From positions 32,001 through 96,000 of the IMG/VR virus record IMGVR_UViG_3300014205_000002: a stretch of 64,000 nt of DNA. One strand, given 5' to 3'. The stretch comes from a virus. Lineage: Duplodnaviria; Caudoviricetes. Position numbers and translations under genes: made by a program. The notes below the pieces were generated by a model that saw only the letters and a program-made list of their open reading frames with translations, was not told the DNA's origin and searched no databases. Positions 51,848 through 62,020 of this stretch are shown one piece after another (the stretch's first letter is position 1; each line of letters begins with the position of its first letter).

Positions 51848-52354
51848 ATGCTCTTGAACTTCACCCCGCCCGATCGGGCGAGATTCGACTCCGACGAGAC
51901 CTGGGGCGACGCCTACTGGAAGGCGCGCAAGGCCTTCATTCATGCCGGCCACTCCGAGCGTCATGACGACTACTGTGCCGCGAGCGACGGCGAGAAGCGC
52001 TACGCCTTTCAGATTCAGCAGATGTACGAGGGCTCGGGCGACTATCTCAGCGGGAACAGCTCCCACGAGCTGCCCTGGTTCGACGACGTCGACAAGGCGA
52101 TCGCCTACCTAGAGCAGGCCCCGTTCCCCGGCTCGGTGCAGCGCACGGCCGCCGGCCTCAAGGGCGAGCCGACCTGGCTCACCGCTGGCGTGGCCTACAC
52201 GAAGTGGGCCGGCGAGCAGGATTACTGGAAGGCCCGCAACCTGACGCCGGGCTTGCATCACTGGCATCCGGAGCTTGGTCAGACCGGGCCGGGCACCGTG
52301 CCCTGTACGCTCTGTGACGTCGCCCGCGCGGACGCACCGCACACTGAAAGGTGA
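51848..52354 (+). CDS. Hypothetical protein
   Basis: GAGGAG RBS before ATG 51848. Confidence 0.6.
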   Translation: MLLNFTPPDRARFDSDETWGDAYWKARKAFIHAGHSERHDDYCAASDGEKRYAFQIQQMYEGSGDYLSGNSSHELPWFDDVDKAIAYLEQAPFPGSVQRTAAGLKGEPTWLTAGVAYTKWAGEQDYWKARNLTPGLHHWHPELGQTGPGTVPCTLCDVARADAPHTER

Positions 52355-53385
52355 CACATATGATTGATTATGAGCACATGGACTTCGACTGTGACGTCCC
52401 TGACGAACTCATGTGCGACCTAAAACAGATTCTCGACGCCCGGAACCGGATCAAGGTATGCGTCGCCGGCAAACTCTACGAGTACCGTCCGGTCGTTGTT
52501 TTTAGTGAAAACTCCGGCACGGTGATTGTCGTCATCAAGTATGCCGACAACGAGGCGCATCTTTCTGATGTGGCGGAGTTCGAGTACGGCGAGTACAAAG
52601 ACCTCTCCGAGGACAAGCGGATCGATCTGGTTCGTTTTAAGTTTCTGGAGATGAAGGATACCTTTGATTGCGTCTCATTCAATATCCCCCGAGAGTTGGG
52701 ACTATTGGAGACGTTTAAGGGGTTGGCCGAGCCTGCGGCCGTCAGCACGGCGACGTGCTCACCTTGGCGCGTCGAGGGCGTCGTTCCAGACGAAGGCATG
52801 GTCAACAAGTTGCTCGTCATCATCCAGAATGAGATTCTTGAGCATTACTCTGACATGCTCGCGTTCGATGTGGACGACGCTGACGACCTCGGTGGTAGCA
52901 TCGTTGATCGGGTGTTTGCGGAGATCGCGCCCGACAAGATCGCCAAGATGCCCAGCGACGATGATGACGCTTCCGAATCCGTCGTTATTACCGACGAAGT
53001 CAAGGAGGCGTTTCGAGACGCCCTCTGGGGCTATTTTAAGATCGCCTCGCCATTGGCGATACGAACCAAGGAAGGCCGCGAGGCCGCAATCGACATGATC
53101 GAGGCTGCTGTTGAGAGCCCCAATCTAGAGGGTAGCTACCTCAAGGATAGCCTTGTTTCTATGACGAATTGGCATAACTTCATGACCGTCACGGAGCTTG
53201 AGCGCAACATTGGTTATGCGATCCTCAATCAGGCTGGCCACGTCCCTATAACCAATGGTTACGGTTACTTGATCTGCACCAATGAGCATCGTCAACTCAC
53301 CGAGATGGAGATCGACTCCATGTCAGATAAGGCCCTGGAGATGATCGTCACCTTCCTTGAGTCCGGCGAGACGGACGACGACTAG
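52351..53385 (+). CDS. Acidic hypothetical protein
   Basis: 344 aa; D/E-rich; AT-richer codon usage. Confidence 0.65.
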   Translation: MTHMIDYEHMDFDCDVPDELMCDLKQILDARNRIKVCVAGKLYEYRPVVVFSENSGTVIVVIKYADNEAHLSDVAEFEYGEYKDLSEDKRIDLVRFKFLEMKDTFDCVSFNIPRELGLLETFKGLAEPAAVSTATCSPWRVEGVVPDEGMVNKLLVIIQNEILEHYSDMLAFDVDDADDLGGSIVDRVFAEIAPDKIAKMPSDDDDASESVVITDEVKEAFRDALWGYFKIASPLAIRTKEGREAAIDMIEAAVESPNLEGSYLKDSLVSMTNWHNFMTVTELERNIGYAILNQAGHVPITNGYGYLICTNEHRQLTEMEIDSMSDKALEMIVTFLESGETDDD

Positions 53386-53387
53386 GC

Positions 53388-53413
53388 TTCCTGATAATCG
53401 CGGTTATCAGGAA
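53388..53413. repeat. Perfect palindrome TTCCTGATAA-TCGCGG-TTATCAGGAA (10-6-10)
   Basis: Read directly; related copy GGTCAGATAA-GACTCA-TTATCTGTAC at 53599-53624. Confidence 0.8.
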
Positions 53414-53689
53414 AAGCCACGGGAACGTGACGCGCGCGAATGCCCTGGGCGTTCGGACCTGGCGCGCGACGGGCCGCCGTAGGGGCGCACGCGCGTTATC
53501 TGGCGCGCGTTATCTAGGCTTGGCACAGGCACTCGTGGGCGCTGCTCCGTAAGCACGCGCCCAGAGCCAGTTTCCGGAAATAGCCCGCATCCGGAATAGG
53601 TCAGATAAGACTCATTATCTGTACTGGCGCGGGTTTCGGTGCTTTTGTCACGCGTCGCGGCCGAGTTGGTCGCGGCAGAGAGGAACCCT

Positions 53690-54376
53690 GTGGAAAAACA
53701 GCTTGCGACCACGGATCCCCACAAGGGGCCGATCATCGACATGCATGCCTCAGACAAGGAAGTCACTCGCGTCTTGAAGGAGGCCGGACACCTGGGCTAC
53801 GCCCGCGGCTATCCGACCAATAGCGACTATGAGCGGTACGTCCTGGTCAACATCCAAACAATCCAGGATGCCTACGCGTTCATGGAACAGTTGATCCGGC
53901 ACAGCTATCACCACCGACCTCGGTGGGCCGTTCACGCAAAGTGGGTGGATACCTGCACTAAAGTGAGCGTGGCACGGCGCACCTACGAGGGTGACAGCAG
54001 TACTTTCTGGTGCGAGCGGCCACGTATGCCGCTTAGCAGTGCCCGTCTGACCCATTGCGGCTGCCACGGCGTCGGTGCCTTCGATGTCCGCAAGGACACC
54101 GGCCGTCCACCATGGGCATTCAACACCCCTAAAGAGCGGGTGAGGGACGCCTATCGCGACTCCCGCTTCAACGCAAACGGTTGCCAGTGTGTCATCATAG
54201 TAGGCGATCGTGTTCTCGGCACAGGCGAGACCGCGGCCAAGGCCTGGGCTGCCGCCGACTTTGCTCTTGAGGAGCAAGTCGTCGCGCGGTGGTACCAGGG
54301 AAACGGCCGACAATTGGCTCCGGCCATGTTCAAGCTGGAGGCGAATCTCGCGCCGTGCCTGTCCAAGATGGCCTGA
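53690..54376 (+). CDS. Hypothetical protein
   Basis: GTG start after GAGAGGA; 228 aa. Confidence 0.55.
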   Translation: MEKQLATTDPHKGPIIDMHASDKEVTRVLKEAGHLGYARGYPTNSDYERYVLVNIQTIQDAYAFMEQLIRHSYHHRPRWAVHAKWVDTCTKVSVARRTYEGDSSTFWCERPRMPLSSARLTHCGCHGVGAFDVRKDTGRPPWAFNTPKERVRDAYRDSRFNANGCQCVIIVGDRVLGTGETAAKAWAAADFALEEQVVARWYQGNGRQLAPAMFKLEANLAPCLSKMA

Positions 54377-54491: not shown

Positions 54492-54830
54492 ATGATCATC
54501 ACCAACCGGAAGAACGCCCCGCTCGCCGCCCAGTGGATCAAAGATAAGCGCACCGAGGCAGGTCTCACGCTGCGGGACATTGAGAAGAAGGTCGATGGCA
54601 TCACCTACTCGCACATGTCGCGCATCGAGAATGGTACCCGGCGCATTCCGCTCGATCGCGTCGACGATCTCTGTGACGTCATGGGCGCGCCCCGTCATGA
54701 GCTGCGCGCGCTCGTGCTTACAGAAGACATGAGCGCAGACGATCAGCTCAAGGTGGCCGAAGCTATCCTCAGGCGGCTCGGGCTCACCCTCGCGATCTCG
54801 GCGACGGCGACGCCGGAGCTGGCGGCGTGA
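54492..54830 (+). CDS. XRE/Cro-CI family HTH transcriptional regulator
   Basis: IKDKRTEAGLTLRDIEKKVDGITYSHMSRIENGTRRIP. Confidence 0.9.
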   Translation: MIITNRKNAPLAAQWIKDKRTEAGLTLRDIEKKVDGITYSHMSRIENGTRRIPLDRVDDLCDVMGAPRHELRALVLTEDMSADDQLKVAEAILRRLGLTLAISATATPELAA

Positions 54831-57560: not shown

Positions 57561-57763
57561 CCGTGAAGTGGATCGCCAAAAACGCGGGGCCTGTCGTCCG
57601 ATGCGGCGACACTCATGATGTGACGCTGATTCAGGCTAAATGCTTCTGCCACAACATGGCCGGCTGTGTCGAGCACGGCATGCTGTTTATACAGGAGAGT
57701 GGCGAGAAGTCCTGGTACGAGGGTGGTGTCGGTCCCTCGCTCAAGCCCGATGATTCTCAATAA
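57557..57763 (+). CDS. Small hypothetical protein
   Basis: 68 aa; ATGA overlap; stop lies inside site S1. Confidence 0.5.
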   Translation: MTVKWIAKNAGPVVRCGDTHDVTLIQAKCFCHNMAGCVEHGMLFIQESGEKSWYEGGVGPSLKPDDSQ

Positions 57764-57790
57764 GGTTTTGCTTACATTGAAAGGAGCACC

Positions 57791-57937
57791 ATGACGGTCG
57801 AGCAGCTTATCAAGCTCCTGCAAGAGGCCAAACAGACGGCCGAGGTCCGCATCGGTGGTAAGAGCCGCAAGGCGATCGGAAAGAGGATTGGAGGCGTCTG
57901 GCATGGGTCCTGCTACATCGAGATCCTGCCCGAGTAG
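57791..57937 (+). CDS. 48-aa hypothetical protein (cassette)
   Basis: MTVEQLIKLLQEAKQTAEVRI...; AAAGGAG RBS; below the ORF-track cut-off. Confidence 0.6.
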   Translation: MTVEQLIKLLQEAKQTAEVRIGGKSRKAIGKRIGGVWHGSCYIEILPE

Positions 57938-57973
57938 CGATAGGCGTTTACTTCCATTGAAAGGAGGTCCACG

Positions 57974-58339
57974 GTGACCAATTACCTAGTCCGCAATACC
58001 GAGACCGGCGCGTTCTATCCTGTGGTTAACGTCCAACTCGAAATGGACGCCTACACCGCGGTCGTCGAAGCGTTCGACATCCCGCAGTCGGTCGCAGACG
58101 CCCCTCTCGAAATTATGAACCAGGCGTGGGTTTGCCCCGGCGAGTACGCCACCAAGAGCATCCGTAGCGCCAAAGAGGAACTCTGGCAGGCGATGGGGCC
58201 TGACGCCACCGAGGCCGAGCGTGACGCCGTATGGGAGGCTGATGTCGTCCACGATCCGGACGCGGACGCCTACTACGTGGTCGACCTCGTCAAGGCGATC
58301 GAGCGAGTGACGGACAACAAATCGGAGAATCGGAAGTAG
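57974..58339 (+). CDS. Hypothetical protein (cassette)
   Basis: 121 aa; AAAGGAGG RBS. Confidence 0.65.
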   Translation: MTNYLVRNTETGAFYPVVNVQLEMDAYTAVVEAFDIPQSVADAPLEIMNQAWVCPGEYATKSIRSAKEELWQAMGPDATEAERDAVWEADVVHDPDADAYYVVDLVKAIERVTDNKSENRK

Positions 58340-58374
58340 TCAATACTCGTTTACTTACATTGAAAGGAGCCACG

Positions 58375-58581
58375 ATGGCACGCCCACCAGGACCTCGCAA
58401 GCCCCGCCGTGACTTCGACGCCGAGCCGCAATACTGCGGCAGCGGCATCACGCCTGAACAGGCGAAGGCGATTCTGTCGCTCTGCAAGGCGCTGGAATAC
58501 TGCGCGGCCCTGGGTCACGACGACGTGGCGCTCAACGCCCTGGAAGCCGACGCCGCCAAGCACGGGCCACCTACAAAGTAG
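58375..58581 (+). CDS. Hypothetical protein (cassette)
   Basis: 68 aa; AAAGGAG RBS. Confidence 0.6.
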   Translation: MARPPGPRKPRRDFDAEPQYCGSGITPEQAKAILSLCKALEYCAALGHDDVALNALEADAAKHGPPTK

Positions 58582-58600
58582 TCCTTCTTATCGAGAGCAT

Positions 58601-58810
58601 ATGAGGCCACGAATGGAACAACTACACCAGGCTAAATTCCGCGTTGTCTGCACATTGCCGTATGACAACGAAAGGCATGTAGCGTGCCTGACTCCTATTA
58701 ATGGACCCGGCGTAGATCTTCAACTCTACGTTGACACGCCAACATGCGTGCGGTTAAAGCAGGCGTACGACAGCGGTGAGATTGTAACGTTAACGCTAAG
58801 TTCCGGATAA
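58601..58810 (+). CDS. AT-richer hypothetical protein (cassette)
   Basis: 69 aa from ATG 58601 (or 58613); flanked by sites with identical TCCTTC cores. Confidence 0.55.
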   Translation: MRPRMEQLHQAKFRVVCTLPYDNERHVACLTPINGPGVDLQLYVDTPTCVRLKQAYDSGEIVTLTLSSG

Positions 58811-58838
58811 TCCTTCGAATATTGAAAATGAGGTCCTT

Positions 58839-59012
58839 ATGGACGCCTACCACATAGACGGAGAACCATTGCTGCTTGCCACGGTGCAACACGGTGATGG
58901 GCGCACAGAGGAAGTGTGTCTAATGTCCGATGGCACACAGGCCACTAACCCCGTTCGCAGGCTCGGAGGCGGCAACCGGGCACAGCGCAGGGCCGCCAAG
59001 AAGTCAAAGTAA
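58839..59012 (+). CDS. 57-aa hypothetical protein (cassette)
   Basis: MDAYHIDGEPLLL...NRAQRRAAKKSK; GAGG RBS; stop inside site S6. Confidence 0.55.
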   Translation: MDAYHIDGEPLLLATVQHGDGRTEEVCLMSDGTQATNPVRRLGGGNRAQRRAAKKSK

Positions 59013-59037
59013 TCACTATTTCATTGAAAGGAGCGTC

Positions 59038-59244
59038 ATGTACGACGTACAAGTTTGCATCAACGGCTGGGTCACGAACCTGCCGACCAACGTCCCCTGG
59101 ACCGTAGGACAGGAGATCAGCATCCGCGTCGGCGCAGACGAATGGGTCGGCGAAGTCATGGCCTGCAAGTCCACCCTGGACGACCCGAACGAAGGGCCTG
59201 TGACCTCGCCTGGCTACGACCACGCGGCGGGTTACCATGACTGA
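59038..59244 (+). CDS. Hypothetical protein (cassette)
   Basis: 68 aa; AAAGGAG RBS. Confidence 0.55.
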   Translation: MYDVQVCINGWVTNLPTNVPWTVGQEISIRVGADEWVGEVMACKSTLDDPNEGPVTSPGYDHAAGYHD

Positions 59245-59605
59245 GCAGATGGCTGACAGCCCAAGAGGGGCAGCTCACGTCGCAGCTCTCAAAGCAATCA
59301 GCCGGTTCGCCGCTGCTGGCCTGGCAGCCGTCCACGGCGAGCATGTGCCGATCGCCATCACCCAAGGCGCGCTCGACTCCATCTTGCAAGCCGCGATCGA
59401 CGTTGCCGGCGACAGCGCCGTAGACGACGCGCGGGCATCCCTGCGCGACCACTACAACGGCGAGCCAGGTCGATGGCCGGTTGGGGCACCCTTGGAGTGG
59501 CGACGGCCTGAGCCAGAGCCGAAAGAGGAGTGCCAGCACCGGGACACCTACTCGTCCTCGCCGAGCGGCTTCACTGTCTGTCGAGACTGCAATCAGGAGC
59601 TTTAG
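59237..59605 (+). CDS. Hypothetical protein with C-terminal CxH/CxxC motif
   Basis: 122 aa; overlaps upstream stop. Confidence 0.55.
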   Translation: MTEQMADSPRGAAHVAALKAISRFAAAGLAAVHGEHVPIAITQGALDSILQAAIDVAGDSAVDDARASLRDHYNGEPGRWPVGAPLEWRRPEPEPKEECQHRDTYSSSPSGFTVCRDCNQEL

Positions 59606-59645
59606 GCTCAATGTAACCAATATTACATAACGAAAGGAGGGCCCT

Positions 59646-60143
59646 GTGACCTGGTTGAAGTTCGGTACCGTGAAGGGCGGCAAGACACACCGCCACATTG
59701 GTGGCGGCAATGCGCTCTGTGACCCCACTATTCAGTTTGAGGTGACGGGCAACCTCGGCGAGGTCTCGTGCAAGCATTGCCTGCGCAAGATGGCTGACGA
59801 GTCCTTGGCGGTGCCGGCCGTCCGCACGTTCTTCACTTATCAACAGGGCCTCGACTACGCAGTCCATACGGTGACGTTCCCGGCGGAATGGGTGCGGCCT
59901 GCCCGCGGCACCTGGTTCAAGAGCCTTGAAGGGCGTATGGTCGCCTGGCACAACTTCTACGACACGCCGGAGGAGGCGCACGCGGCAGCGGACCTGGCGA
60001 AGTTGCGCAGCCACCTGGCAGCCTTTCACAGCCGTACGAGGGACGACGCCTACGGCAGGGAGATGGTCCAGGAGATGACGGAGCTGGTCGAGAAGATCAT
60101 CGCCATCGCCTACCCGAAGCCAGCCGCCGCACCCGCAATATAA
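59646..60143 (+). CDS. Hypothetical protein (cassette)
   Basis: 165 aa; H..C..CxxC N-terminus; stop inside site S8. Confidence 0.65.
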   Translation: MTWLKFGTVKGGKTHRHIGGGNALCDPTIQFEVTGNLGEVSCKHCLRKMADESLAVPAVRTFFTYQQGLDYAVHTVTFPAEWVRPARGTWFKSLEGRMVAWHNFYDTPEEAHAAADLAKLRSHLAAFHSRTRDDAYGREMVQEMTELVEKIIAIAYPKPAAAPAI

Positions 60144-60173
60144 CAACCATTTCATTGAAGAAAGGAGGGCTAC

Positions 60174-60353
60174 GTGCCCAAGTTCATCGTGGTGACCACG
60201 GTCATCGAGCGGCGAGAGATTGAGGCGGCAACGCCCGACGAGGCTTTTGAGTTAAACAACAACGCAGAAGGCAACGACTACAGTCTTTCCGTTGAGGTCC
60301 CTGACCGCTATGCCACGGACGGGAGTGGTCGGCAGTTCCGCGAAGCACTGTAA
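60174..60353 (+). CDS. 59-aa hypothetical protein (cassette)
   Basis: MPKFIVVTTVIERREIEAATPDEAFEL...; AAAGGAGG RBS. Confidence 0.6.
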   Translation: MPKFIVVTTVIERREIEAATPDEAFELNNNAEGNDYSLSVEVPDRYATDGSGRQFREAL

Positions 60354-60388
60354 TCAAAGTAACACCAACATCATTGAGAGGCCCCAAC

Positions 60389-60712
60389 ATGGACCCTAGC
60401 GCACAGATCCAGGTTGACAAACTGCGACCTAAAATGATCGAAGCATTTTGCGTCAATTTCAATAAAAGTGAAGAAGAAGTAACTACGGCTATGAAAAGCG
60501 TGGGACATAAGTTCTTCATTGTAATATCAACTCGCCAACATGAATCATACGGATTGATGGCAACATTTATGGTTCCAGCCATCCGCAATAACCAACCAGA
60601 CTTTTCGGTCGAGGAGGCGCTAGTTGACGACGACTATATAGATTACTCGATTCGAGTTATTATCCAGTCAATCGAATCCGTCAACAATACGACCATCAGG
60701 CTTTCGCTATAA
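60389..60712 (+). CDS. AT-rich hypothetical protein (cassette, likely recent acquisition)
   Basis: 107 aa; visibly lower GC than the rest of the window. Confidence 0.6.
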   Translation: MDPSAQIQVDKLRPKMIEAFCVNFNKSEEEVTTAMKSVGHKFFIVISTRQHESYGLMATFMVPAIRNNQPDFSVEEALVDDDYIDYSIRVIIQSIESVNNTTIRLSL

Positions 60713-60796
60713 CTCCAAAACCCTTAAAAATAGCACGTAATATACTGACCAGATACCTAGACAACGACGGCGGCACGACCGCCAGGAGGATACCCA

Positions 60797-61165
60797 TTGA
60801 AGCAAGAACGCAAAGAGGCGCTGAGGAAGCTCGGCAAGGCCGCAGAGCGGTTCCGGCTGCTCGCGGCGGTGCCGATGCAACGCACCATCCGCCCCGGCGG
60901 CATCATCGTCCAGGCCGCCGAGGACGTGAACCTGTTTCTGCTGGCCGAGGGCATCGGCCTGGCGGGCGGCGACGGCCTGTTGCTGCTCACCGAGTTGGCG
61001 GCCACGCGGAAGGCGCTGGCGGATCTACTGGAGCACCACGAGGACGAGCCCGATCGGCCAGCCGTCAAGAACGCCAGCGCGATGCTGGAAGGAATCCACG
61101 AACACGTGGCGCTGATGCGGGACTTCGGCCCTGCCTCCGCTAAACAGAGCGAAGGCGGGCTGTGA
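60797..61165 (+). CDS. Hypothetical protein
   Basis: TTG start; AGGAGG RBS; 122 aa. Confidence 0.6.
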   Translation: MKQERKEALRKLGKAAERFRLLAAVPMQRTIRPGGIIVQAAEDVNLFLLAEGIGLAGGDGLLLLTELAATRKALADLLEHHEDEPDRPAVKNASAMLEGIHEHVALMRDFGPASAKQSEGGL

Positions 61166-61404
61166 TGCGGCGAGAGATTCCCATTACCCAGGGACCCAAC
61201 CGCACCGTGGCGATGACCCAACACGGCGACACGTTGAGTCTCTATGAGCGTGCGGACGGCCGGGAAAACCGGGTGTTTATTGCGCCCGAGGAGTTGGCAC
61301 TGGTTGCGCTCTCCGCGTCGGGACGCTTCCAGGAACGCTACTCCGCGGAGATTGAGCGGTTGCAGGGCCAGGCCGACTCACCGGGCGAAGGCGGCGGCGC
61401 ATGA
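61162..61404 (+). CDS. Hypothetical protein
   Basis: 80 aa; GTGA overlap. Confidence 0.5.
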   Translation: MMRREIPITQGPNRTVAMTQHGDTLSLYERADGRENRVFIAPEELALVALSASGRFQERYSAEIERLQGQADSPGEGGGA

Positions 61405-61607
61405 CGAGCGTTTATCCCATCGGGCCGCTCGGCGAACCCGAAGATAGTCGGGCGTGGTCGAACGGCATTCCGCCGTGCGGTCCCTGTGGACGCGGGGAGC
61501 ACGATGAGTGCAAGGGTGGATTCGAGGACCTGGCCGGATACCGTCAGTGCTGGTGCCCTGTTTGCTACCCCGCCTCTTCGCGCAAAGACGGCGATCAGCA
61601 CGGATAG
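61401..61607 (+). CDS. Small Cys-rich protein
   Basis: CGPC..GEHDEC...CWCPVC. Confidence 0.55.
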   Translation: MTSVYPIGPLGEPEDSRAWSNGIPPCGPCGRGEHDECKGGFEDLAGYRQCWCPVCYPASSRKDGDQHG

Positions 61608-61645
61608 TCAATGTAACAGCCGATTCATTGCAAAAAGGAGTCCTG

Positions 61646-61993
61646 ATGACTTGCTGCCATTGTTCAAGCGCCAACTTGGAATACGCCACGAAGCGCGCCC
61701 GCGAGGCTGAAGTTGAACTGGCTCGACTCCAGGCAGACGTCGCACGCATCCGCGGCGAGAACCAGAACCTCCACTACGCCATGCTCGTCGTCCGAGATCT
61801 GGTTGGCTTACAGACGCGGGATGCCTACCTTGACCCGGCCTTTGGGCAGATGGTGAAGCTCCCGGCTGACTGGCGAAAGTGGACGACCGAGCAGTATCAG
61901 GAATGGATCGATGGGCAGCAGCCAGAACTGCGCCGGGCCGTCGAGTTCCTGGACAAGATGGAGGGCGTCGTTGGCGTCGTCCCAGCAATATAA
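61646..61993 (+). CDS. Hypothetical protein (cassette)
   Basis: 115 aa; AAAGGAG RBS; stop inside site S12. Confidence 0.6.
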   Translation: MTCCHCSSANLEYATKRAREAEVELARLQADVARIRGENQNLHYAMLVVRDLVGLQTRDAYLDPAFGQMVKLPADWRKWTTEQYQEWIDGQQPELRRAVEFLDKMEGVVGVVPAI

Positions 61994-62020
61994 CCCCTGA
62001 CTCATTGAAAGGATGGCATT

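Follow-up and report, generated by a model that had tools for sequence, protein, structure and literature searches.

The route by which phages take up their many small ORFan genes is largely unexplained, the usual answer being rare illegitimate recombination together with selection. We asked whether one such gene, which lies between two imperfect sites with the same TCCTTC centre (S4 and S5) in an array of repeated motifs, entered by exchange within that centre. A precise, site-directed one-gene insertion into a repeated intergenic motif would, if true, point to an organised means of gene capture in a large phage, with integrons and dif modules as its nearest analogues. The DNA analysed (the window, 64,000 nucleotides) comprises bases 32001-96000 of a 208,264-bp IMG/VR record with direct terminal repeats, a completeness rating of 100% and a GC content of 64%. 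Its genes include one for a tail sheath, which marks it as a large contractile-tailed phage, and one for a baseplate wedge protein. Searches of its DNA against 50,697 phage records with megablast and blastn gave no DNA relative, and the only matches of the tail sheath are to Salmonella and Vibrio phages (26-30% identity). Using the tail sheath, the 65-aa gene under study and a 165-aa array gene as queries, we found no relatives among viral contigs. The sole public run containing the phage is a landfill metagenome, probably the source sample, and no RNA runs containing it are listed.

The locus belongs to a 4.3-kb run of small same-strand genes, most junctions of which carry a 24-bp motif whose consensus, TCAATGTAA-N6-TTACATTGA, is a perfect palindrome (Table 1). 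Nine strong copies (17-31 bits with a weight matrix) lie at gene junctions in 57757-61985, all on the plus strand and running into AAGGAG ahead of the start codons, and the rest of the genome reaches at most about 16 bits; S4, S5 and S10 are weak copies. The left arm often holds the stop codon of the upstream gene, and individual sites are self-complementary at 4-7 of 9 positions. We rejected an RNA hairpin as the basis of this symmetry, as the leaders fold no better than shuffles (z-scores near zero or positive) and the arms lack covariation (48/81 Watson-Crick pairs, with 52.2 expected from independent columns). With neither covariation nor a stable fold, the symmetry is that of two similar half-sites on double-stranded DNA. 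A promoter reading was likewise rejected: the array sites show no sigma-70-like match, and promoter- and terminator-like counts are at shuffle level. The motif behaves like the site of a dimeric DNA-binding protein, and a dimer-bound 9-6-9 site is compatible with a recombinase and with a stoperator- or ESAS-like regulator alike. Thus the footprint at S4 and S5, which the earlier note took as the best single evidence for recombination over operator function, does not decide the matter for the whole array, whose motif properties fit either. A degenerate motif scan of viral contigs revealed no second array; its only hits were isolated chance matches in AT-rich contigs.

Table 1. Features of the array, of the S4-S5 interval and of the upstream palindromes (window coordinates).
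Feature	Position	Strand	Remarks
Perfect 9-6-9 palindrome, TCCTGATAA-TCGCGG-TTATCAGGA	53389..53412		Just after a stop codon
Second palindrome, CAGATAA-GACTCA-TTATCTG	53602..53621		GATAA-N6-TTATC type
Array of the 24-bp motif, TCAATGTAA-N6-TTACATTGA	57757..62008	+	Usually followed by AAGGAG and a start codon
Upstream gene, 68 aa, ORFan	58375..58581	+	GC3 0.77; end codons ACA AAG TAG form the S4 left arm
S4, putative attL-like hybrid, ACAAAGTAG-TCCTTC-TTATCGAGA	58573..58596	+	Left arm array-like, right arm not
Direct repeat TCCTTC, copy 1	58582..58587	+	Immediately 3' of TAG 58579-81
Inner arm at the left end of the putative insert, TTATCGAGA	58588..58596	+	7/9 inverted to 58802-58810, first 5 bases perfect
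Low-GC ORFan gene, 65 aa	58613..58810	+	GC 49.5%, GC3 0.52; Shine-Dalgarno GAGG 58603-06
S5, putative attR-like hybrid, TCCGGATAA-TCCTTC-GAATATTGA	58802..58825	+	Right arm array-like, left arm not
Inner arm at the right end of the putative insert, TCCGGATAA	58802..58810	+	Contains the stop codon TAA of the 65-aa gene
Direct repeat TCCTTC, copy 2	58811..58816	+	Immediately 3' of TAA 58808-10
Downstream gene, 57 aa, ORFan	58839..59012	+	GC3 0.66

The gene between S4 and S5 is AT-richer than its surroundings, as previously claimed: its GC content is 49.5% and its GC3 0.52, compared with a GC3 of 0.66-0.82 in neighbouring genes. Its likelier start is ATG 58613, at a spacing of 6 from the GAGG, with ATG 58601 in the same frame. 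Only 0.68% of the genome's 198-bp windows have a GC content as low as this, so the gene is very probably foreign, and we hold with good confidence that it is an insertion. Low-GC windows cluster as nine islands in the 208 kb, and the gene is one of them. We found no family for it in Pfam or PHROG, no homologue in 185,579 prokaryotic genomes and nothing scoring at least 0.9 in a protein atlas. An exhaustive HMMER search of 1.84 billion protein representatives gave no true homologue; its four hits were rejected as repeat-inflated matches to unrelated long proteins. A single-sequence AlphaFold2 model of the protein predicts, at low confidence (pLDDT 61), three strands and one helix. The upstream and downstream genes returned only self-matches from 5.8 billion proteins, and the phage genome holds no second copy of the S4-gene-S5 unit.

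We then considered the two sites themselves, whose sequences and coordinates are exactly as first described. The TCCTTC copies lie 229 bp apart, and each immediately follows a stop codon, the two codons belonging to successive genes. The left arm of S4, ACAAAGTAG, includes the stop codon of the upstream gene, and the right arm of S5, GAATATTGA, continues into AAAATGAGG, followed by ATG 58839. Each site is a poor palindrome alone (S4 3/9 inverted, S5 4/9), and joining the two inner arms as TCCGGATAA-TCCTTC-TTATCGAGA yields a putative circle junction that is 7/9 inverted; both points bear out the original description. The claim that the joined outer arms, the putative empty site, come closer to the array consensus holds by weight matrix and not by palindromy. 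Specifically, the empty site scores 11.85 bits, above S10, compared with 6.1 bits for S4 and 6.6 bits for S5 (both at genome background) and 0.9 bits for the circle junction, and its arms are inverted at only 4/9 positions. Taken singly, the left arm of S4 scores 6.5 bits (p 0.0013 genome-wide; 0.035 given a stop codon) and matches TCAAAGTAA of S6 and S9 at 7/9 positions, and the right arm of S5 scores 5.35 bits (p 0.0024), whereas the inner arms TTATCGAGA and TCCGGATAA score -0.4 and 1.3 bits. Since the outer arms look like those of the array and the inner ones stay at background level, one weak array site has apparently been split. The rebuilt empty site would have a stop-to-start distance of 28 nt, typical of the array.

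The two sites share 8/9 bases when the stop codon is included, and their likeness ends at the hexamer. We rejected duplication of a leader as its origin, as their right flanks resemble each other no more than S4 resembles the other leaders; the abrupt end of the likeness is more in keeping with a crossover point than with leader duplication.

The putative circle junction would read GATAA-TCCTTC-TTATC, and exact GATAA-N6-TTATC occurs only twice in the 208-kb genome, at 53393 and 53604, about 5 kb upstream. Both occurrences lie in one 300-bp non-coding block (53386-53689) upstream of an XRE-type HTH gene (54492-54830). The first belongs to TCCTGATAA-TCGCGG-TTATCAGGA, the only perfect AT-rich 9-6-9 palindrome of the genome and the closest match to the hypothetical junction, with arm identities of 8/9 and 7/9. 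The arrangement of a hexamer followed by TTATC and, further on, GATAA followed by the same hexamer is seen once in the genome, at S4/S5; it arose in 0/400 shuffles within 300 bp and in 4% within 3 kb. Likeness of the arms beyond the pentamers counts for little: the right-end inner arm plus one base, TTCCGGATAA, matches TTCCTGATAA at 53388 in 9/10 positions, but so do 3/74 other half-sites, and the 7/10 of the right arm is ordinary. The gene at 52351-53385, which adjoins the 53389 palindrome, was rejected as a parallel case, as codon positions 1 and 2 account for its low GC (GC3 0.70).

We tentatively favour, of the readings considered, an exchange of the site-specific type within TCCTTC, between a weak array site and the palindromic site of an incoming unit. 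The ancestral array copy would have read ACAAAGTAG-TCCTTC-GAATATTGA, and its 6-bp spacer would have received a foreign segment of about 223 bp that holds one gene, from the ribosome-binding site through the 65-aa ORF to the stop codon. The hexamer would now stand on either side of the insert because the proposed exchange took place inside it. The ends of the insert, TCCGGATAA and TTATCGAGA, would be the halves of a second 9-6-9 palindrome of the GATAA-N6-TTATC type, and the mobile form would, for that reason, have been a 229-bp circle or a tandem unit with one complete palindrome. The most likely chemistry is conservative site-specific recombination of the tyrosine-recombinase type, in which a dimer would sit on the arms and exchange would occur across the 6-bp overlap; the acting enzyme may have been the Xer-like protein of the phage or a host enzyme. 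Integration of a 229-bp circle, as put forward in the earlier note, agrees with the foreign gene, the hexamer at the gene boundaries and the split site. The spacers add to this: two of the array's three best-matched pairs (6/6 at S4/S5 and 5/6 at S9/S10; 3/55 by chance) enclose its two most AT-rich genes, the S9/S10 gene being 60389-60712 (GC3 0.47). The proposed exchange agrees less well with the arms, as those of the empty site and of the junction are identical at only 3/9 and 4/9 positions, a difficulty if a single recombinase has to bind the two partners, and spacers that differ at nearly every array site speak against free movement of cassettes. Nor is a product seen in the contigs: exact searches of viral and metagenome contigs returned neither the empty site nor the circle junction, nor either flank next to the hexamer, and the assembled contigs of the source run contain a single form and no joints.

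The first rival to this exchange is coincidence, which we take as a genuine possibility while leaning against it. S4 and S5 would then be decayed leader copies, the gene would have come by scarless illegitimate recombination, and the repeated TCCTTC and the 7/9 junction would be chance matches, helped by stop codons and by leftovers of the palindromic consensus. The background-level scores of both sites suit this account, as do about 90 genome positions that score at least 8 bits on the array matrix. So does the fact that the pattern was spotted by eye, after the event. To gauge chance, we used a fixed register, in which the stop codon forms the last three bases of the left arm and the hexamer follows directly, across 189 pairs of adjacent genes on the same strand, taken from a rough gene call. 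A fully identical hexamer (6/6) occurs in this register at S4/S5 only, hexamer identity having an empirical rate of 7e-4 per gene pair, and a junction inverted at 7/9 or better occurs in 3/189 pairs (1.6%). The two coincide at S4/S5 only, with an expected joint count of about 0.002, and they do so on one of the nine low-GC islands; no comparable footprint was found at the other eight.

When position is left free, however, a 6-bp repeat accompanied by a 7/9 inverted pair can be found around 15% of random intervals, although limiting this search to two intergenic gaps of about 30 nt brings the figure back to about 0.002. Of the arms cross-combined inside the array, 21% reach 7/9, a consequence of its palindromic consensus, and 5/7 of the junction matches (TC....TAA with TTA....GA) fall on array-consensus or stop-codon positions. 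The tests of whether such matches are expected by chance therefore point both ways: the pattern beats chance solely through its exact placement at gene boundaries, and its significance depends on a register picked after the data had been seen. Allowing for this post hoc choice, we put the chance probability at about 0.004-0.03, which is suggestive and not conclusive.

Coincidence also draws on the neighbouring spacers. Adjacent spacers of the array are in general more alike than distant ones (permutation p 1e-5), so an identical neighbouring pair is not unique; part of this trend is a block structure of S1-S3, S4-S5 and S6-S12. Adjacent spacers agree at 6/6 positions at S2/S3 and S4/S5 only, at 5/6 at S9/S10, and at 2-4/6 elsewhere. 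S2 and S3 enclose a gene of normal composition and share about 20/21 bases, with nearly the entire right half-site in common, which looks like leader duplication rather than a scar. At S4/S5, by contrast, identity stops sharply at the hexamer and both adjoining arms differ, and the junction carries the pentamer pair of the genome's only two GATAA-N6-TTATC palindromes; both features argue against coincidence.

The scar may also be real and have formed without a dedicated enzyme, through microhomology template switching, a single crossover of a small circle at TCCTTC or capture of a fragment broken at the tips of two donor hairpins, in which case the inverted ends would be chance or the remains of the donor hairpins. 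We rate this as unlikely, although it explains the direct repeat, the foreign composition and the split site equally well, and phage mosaicism shows that new phage genes usually enter by illegitimate recombination where genes meet. The dissimilar arms of the empty site and the junction speak for it, as do the lack of a recombinase adjoining the array and the absence of three common transposase families (rve, DDE_Tnp_1 and Y1) from the phage genome. Against it, the 7/9 inverted ends and their GATAA/TTATC identity with 53393 and 53604 would both have to be coincidental, and the donor would need TCCTTC on both sides of the gene, or a switch back exactly in register.

Inverted ends flanked by a direct repeat are the classical hallmark of transposons, and the locus shows the TIR and TSD arrangement, with ends that match at 7/9 positions and perfectly in the first five bases. 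The gene could accordingly be read as part of a miniature transposable element with 9-bp imperfect inverted ends (TTATCGAGA ... TCCGGATAA) and a 6-bp TCCTTC target-site duplication, moved in trans by a host transposase and likened to MITEs or to the ultra-small MPME elements of mycobacteriophages. MPMEs are very small (about 440 bp), have short inverted ends and one small ORF, and are mobile in phage genomes, where they occupy several insertion sites across related phages (PMC3029335). The unit here, in contrast, is 223-229 bp long and unique, with no further copy in the genome and no homologue in the protein and genome collections searched with its gene, and it has a true 6-bp direct repeat, whereas MPMEs carry an extra 6 bp, of unknown origin, at one end and make no target duplication (PMC3029335). 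Given also the very short inverted repeats and the missing transposase families, we find a miniature element very improbable.

Least credible is a homologous exchange between leader motifs, with the gene arriving on a mini-circle through a shared leader as at the PeSLs of T4-type phages: those repeated intergenic motifs flank small ORFan genes in the variable regions of large myoviruses, much as each small ORFan gene here follows a repeated motif in a large contractile-tailed phage, and their exchanges yield indels and encapsidated mini-circles (PMC2839356, PMC4122927), and S2/S3 and S9/S10 (13/18 bases shared) look like duplicated leaders, but a PeSL combines a promoter with a terminator stem-loop and acts through homology, whereas the array motif has neither part, the S4/S5 identity is the hexamer with its stop codon and too short for homologous recombination, and the inner arms are not array-like.

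We searched the genome for an enzyme that could carry out the favoured site-specific exchange. A single tyrosine recombinase is encoded in the 208 kb. Its gene lies about 80 kb from the array, the PF00589 hit covering genome positions 171437-171874 within a 317-aa frame of the minus strand. The protein is distantly Xer-like: its match to the XerD model (61 bits, cut-off 330) and the XerC model (59 bits, cut-off 335) is full-length but weak. When aligned with a recombinase-like PDB chain it retains both catalytic Arg and the Tyr, with Gln in place of the His of HxxR and Phe at the last His/Trp position. The phage genome contains no serine recombinase, and no dif-like site lies beside the recombinase gene.

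The array resembles an integron in that the mobile unit would be one promoterless gene with one site, and a short direct core repeat would bound the integrated cassette. Further likenesses are the single gene orientation, the many ORFans among the putative cassettes and the ORFs that in some cases end inside the site. However, no integrase stands beside the array, and the distant recombinase scores only 15.5 bits against the integron-integrase model TIGR02249 (cut-off 265). Integron attC sites are 57-141 bp long and conserved in structure, whereas the phage sites are 24 bp long and conserved in sequence, lack covariation, a stable single-strand fold and a GTTRRRY core, and have a spacer that varies between sites. 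The locus thus fails the tests that define an integron.

Xer/dif systems fit in geometry only. Palindrome-like arms surround a 6-bp centre in both, the middle of the putative junction has the form ATAA-N6-TTAT, and an Xer-like recombinase is encoded; as in IMEX and in the plasmid dif modules of Acinetobacter, small gene modules are bounded by sites (PMC6449649). The phage arms are nevertheless 9 bp long rather than 11 bp, the recombinase falls far short of the model cut-off and has two catalytic positions changed, and the sites of dif modules alternate in orientation, whereas S4 and S5 are direct.

We also considered whether the array as a whole might be a phage-borne cassette platform, and we give this little credence. 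Genes or short coupled groups would move with their 9-6-9 sites as small circles through the Xer-like recombinase, exchange would take place in the 6-bp spacer, and the sites would additionally provide a stop codon for the gene before them and a translation leader for the gene after. The freshest insertion would then be S4/S5, with S9/S10 and S2/S3 older.

For the array as a whole, the best descriptive match is the SAS/ESAS of Cluster K mycobacteriophages, a resemblance of layout and function only. These are imperfect inverted repeats with a spacer upstream of a start-associated motif, and their function is still unknown (PMC3203893, PMC12699233). In both systems a conserved motif with a Shine-Dalgarno sequence stands just before the start codon and keeps one orientation, the genes it serves are non-structural, and imperfect inverted repeats lie ahead of it. 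Should the proposed insertion be true, it would offer a testable function for start-associated inverted repeats, a question open in Cluster K since 2011; should the pattern be chance, the locus would still be a clear new ESAS-like leader array in an unrelated 208-kb phage. The phage has no sequence relation to any GenBank phage, which leaves it without kinship to Cluster K, and no insertion scar has been described for SAS/ESAS. The motifs also differ in build: the phage has 9-bp arms around a fixed 6-bp spacer, compared with 17-bp arms and 4-13-bp spacers in SAS/ESAS, and its left arm carries the upstream stop codon.

The spacers of the 12 sites (S1-S12) at which a 24-bp motif marks the junctions of the small same-strand gene array (57757-62008) carry few G on the coding strand (6/72 bases, against 31/72 for C). 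They fall into three blocks, with T-rich spacers at S1-S3, TCCTTC at S4-S5, and C/A-rich spacers at S6-S12. This G-poor, block-wise pattern suggests that the spacers are under constraint in the mRNA, have descended locally, or both. The motif also reaches into the coding sequences. In seven array sites the stop codon is a TAA in a fixed frame at arm positions 7-9, and the array motif therefore constrains protein C-termini. Two unrelated proteins (genes 59646-60143 and 61646-61993) share the C-terminal residues Pro-Ala-Ile, since their last codons and stop come from the left arm GCAATATAA.

The gene between S9 and S10 has the highest AT content among array genes. The spacers of these two sites, CACCAA and CTCCAA, are identical at 5/6 positions, and gapless comparison of the 18 nt from the stop codon onward gives 13/18 matches. 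S10 is a degenerate copy of the array motif, followed by an unusual AT-rich gap of 85 bp that precedes the next gene and contains a GC-rich hairpin (GGCGGCACGACCGCC).

Features and their coordinates (window positions unless marked as positions of the whole record)
Feature	Position	Strand	Details
AT-rich array gene	60389-60712		GC 42%, GC3 0.47; flanked by S9 and S10; region 60354-60797
Sigma-70-like match, TTGTAA-18-GATAAT	58782-58811		9/12; within 3' end of inserted gene
Xer-like tyrosine recombinase	whole record 171437-171874; locus L001:1459-2412	minus	317 aa; outside window
Non-coding block	53386-53689		300 bp; after gene 52351-53385
Perfect palindrome, TTCCTGATAA-TCGCGG-TTATCAGGAA	53388-53413		inside non-coding block
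Second palindrome, CAGATAA-GACTCA-TTATCTG	53602-53621		inside non-coding block
Palindromic near-match to array motif, TCAAGGATA-GCCTTG-TTTCTATGA	53141-53164		13.8-15.9 bits

The -10 box of the sigma-70-like match overlaps both the stop codon of the inserted gene, which lies between S4 and S5, and its GATAA arm. This match could drive gene 58839-59012; sigma-70-like matches in this region occur at chance level. The phage encodes one tyrosine recombinase, a remote Xer-like protein. It carries Gln where HxxR has its histidine, and the last His/Trp position is occupied by Phe. Neither a serine recombinase nor a dif-like palindrome was found beside its gene.

The probable role of the non-coding block is that of a regulatory switch or resolution site. 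Besides its two palindromes, the first of which has a further GGCTT/AAGCC pair outside it, the block carries CGCGCGTTATCT twice as direct repeats, along with a pair of TCCGGAA(A)TAG repeats. The genes downstream of it are an ORFan at 53639-54376 and, at 54492-54830, an XRE-type HTH gene. The near-match to the array motif is isolated, lies within ORF 52351-53385, and was additionally flagged as terminator-like by the scan.
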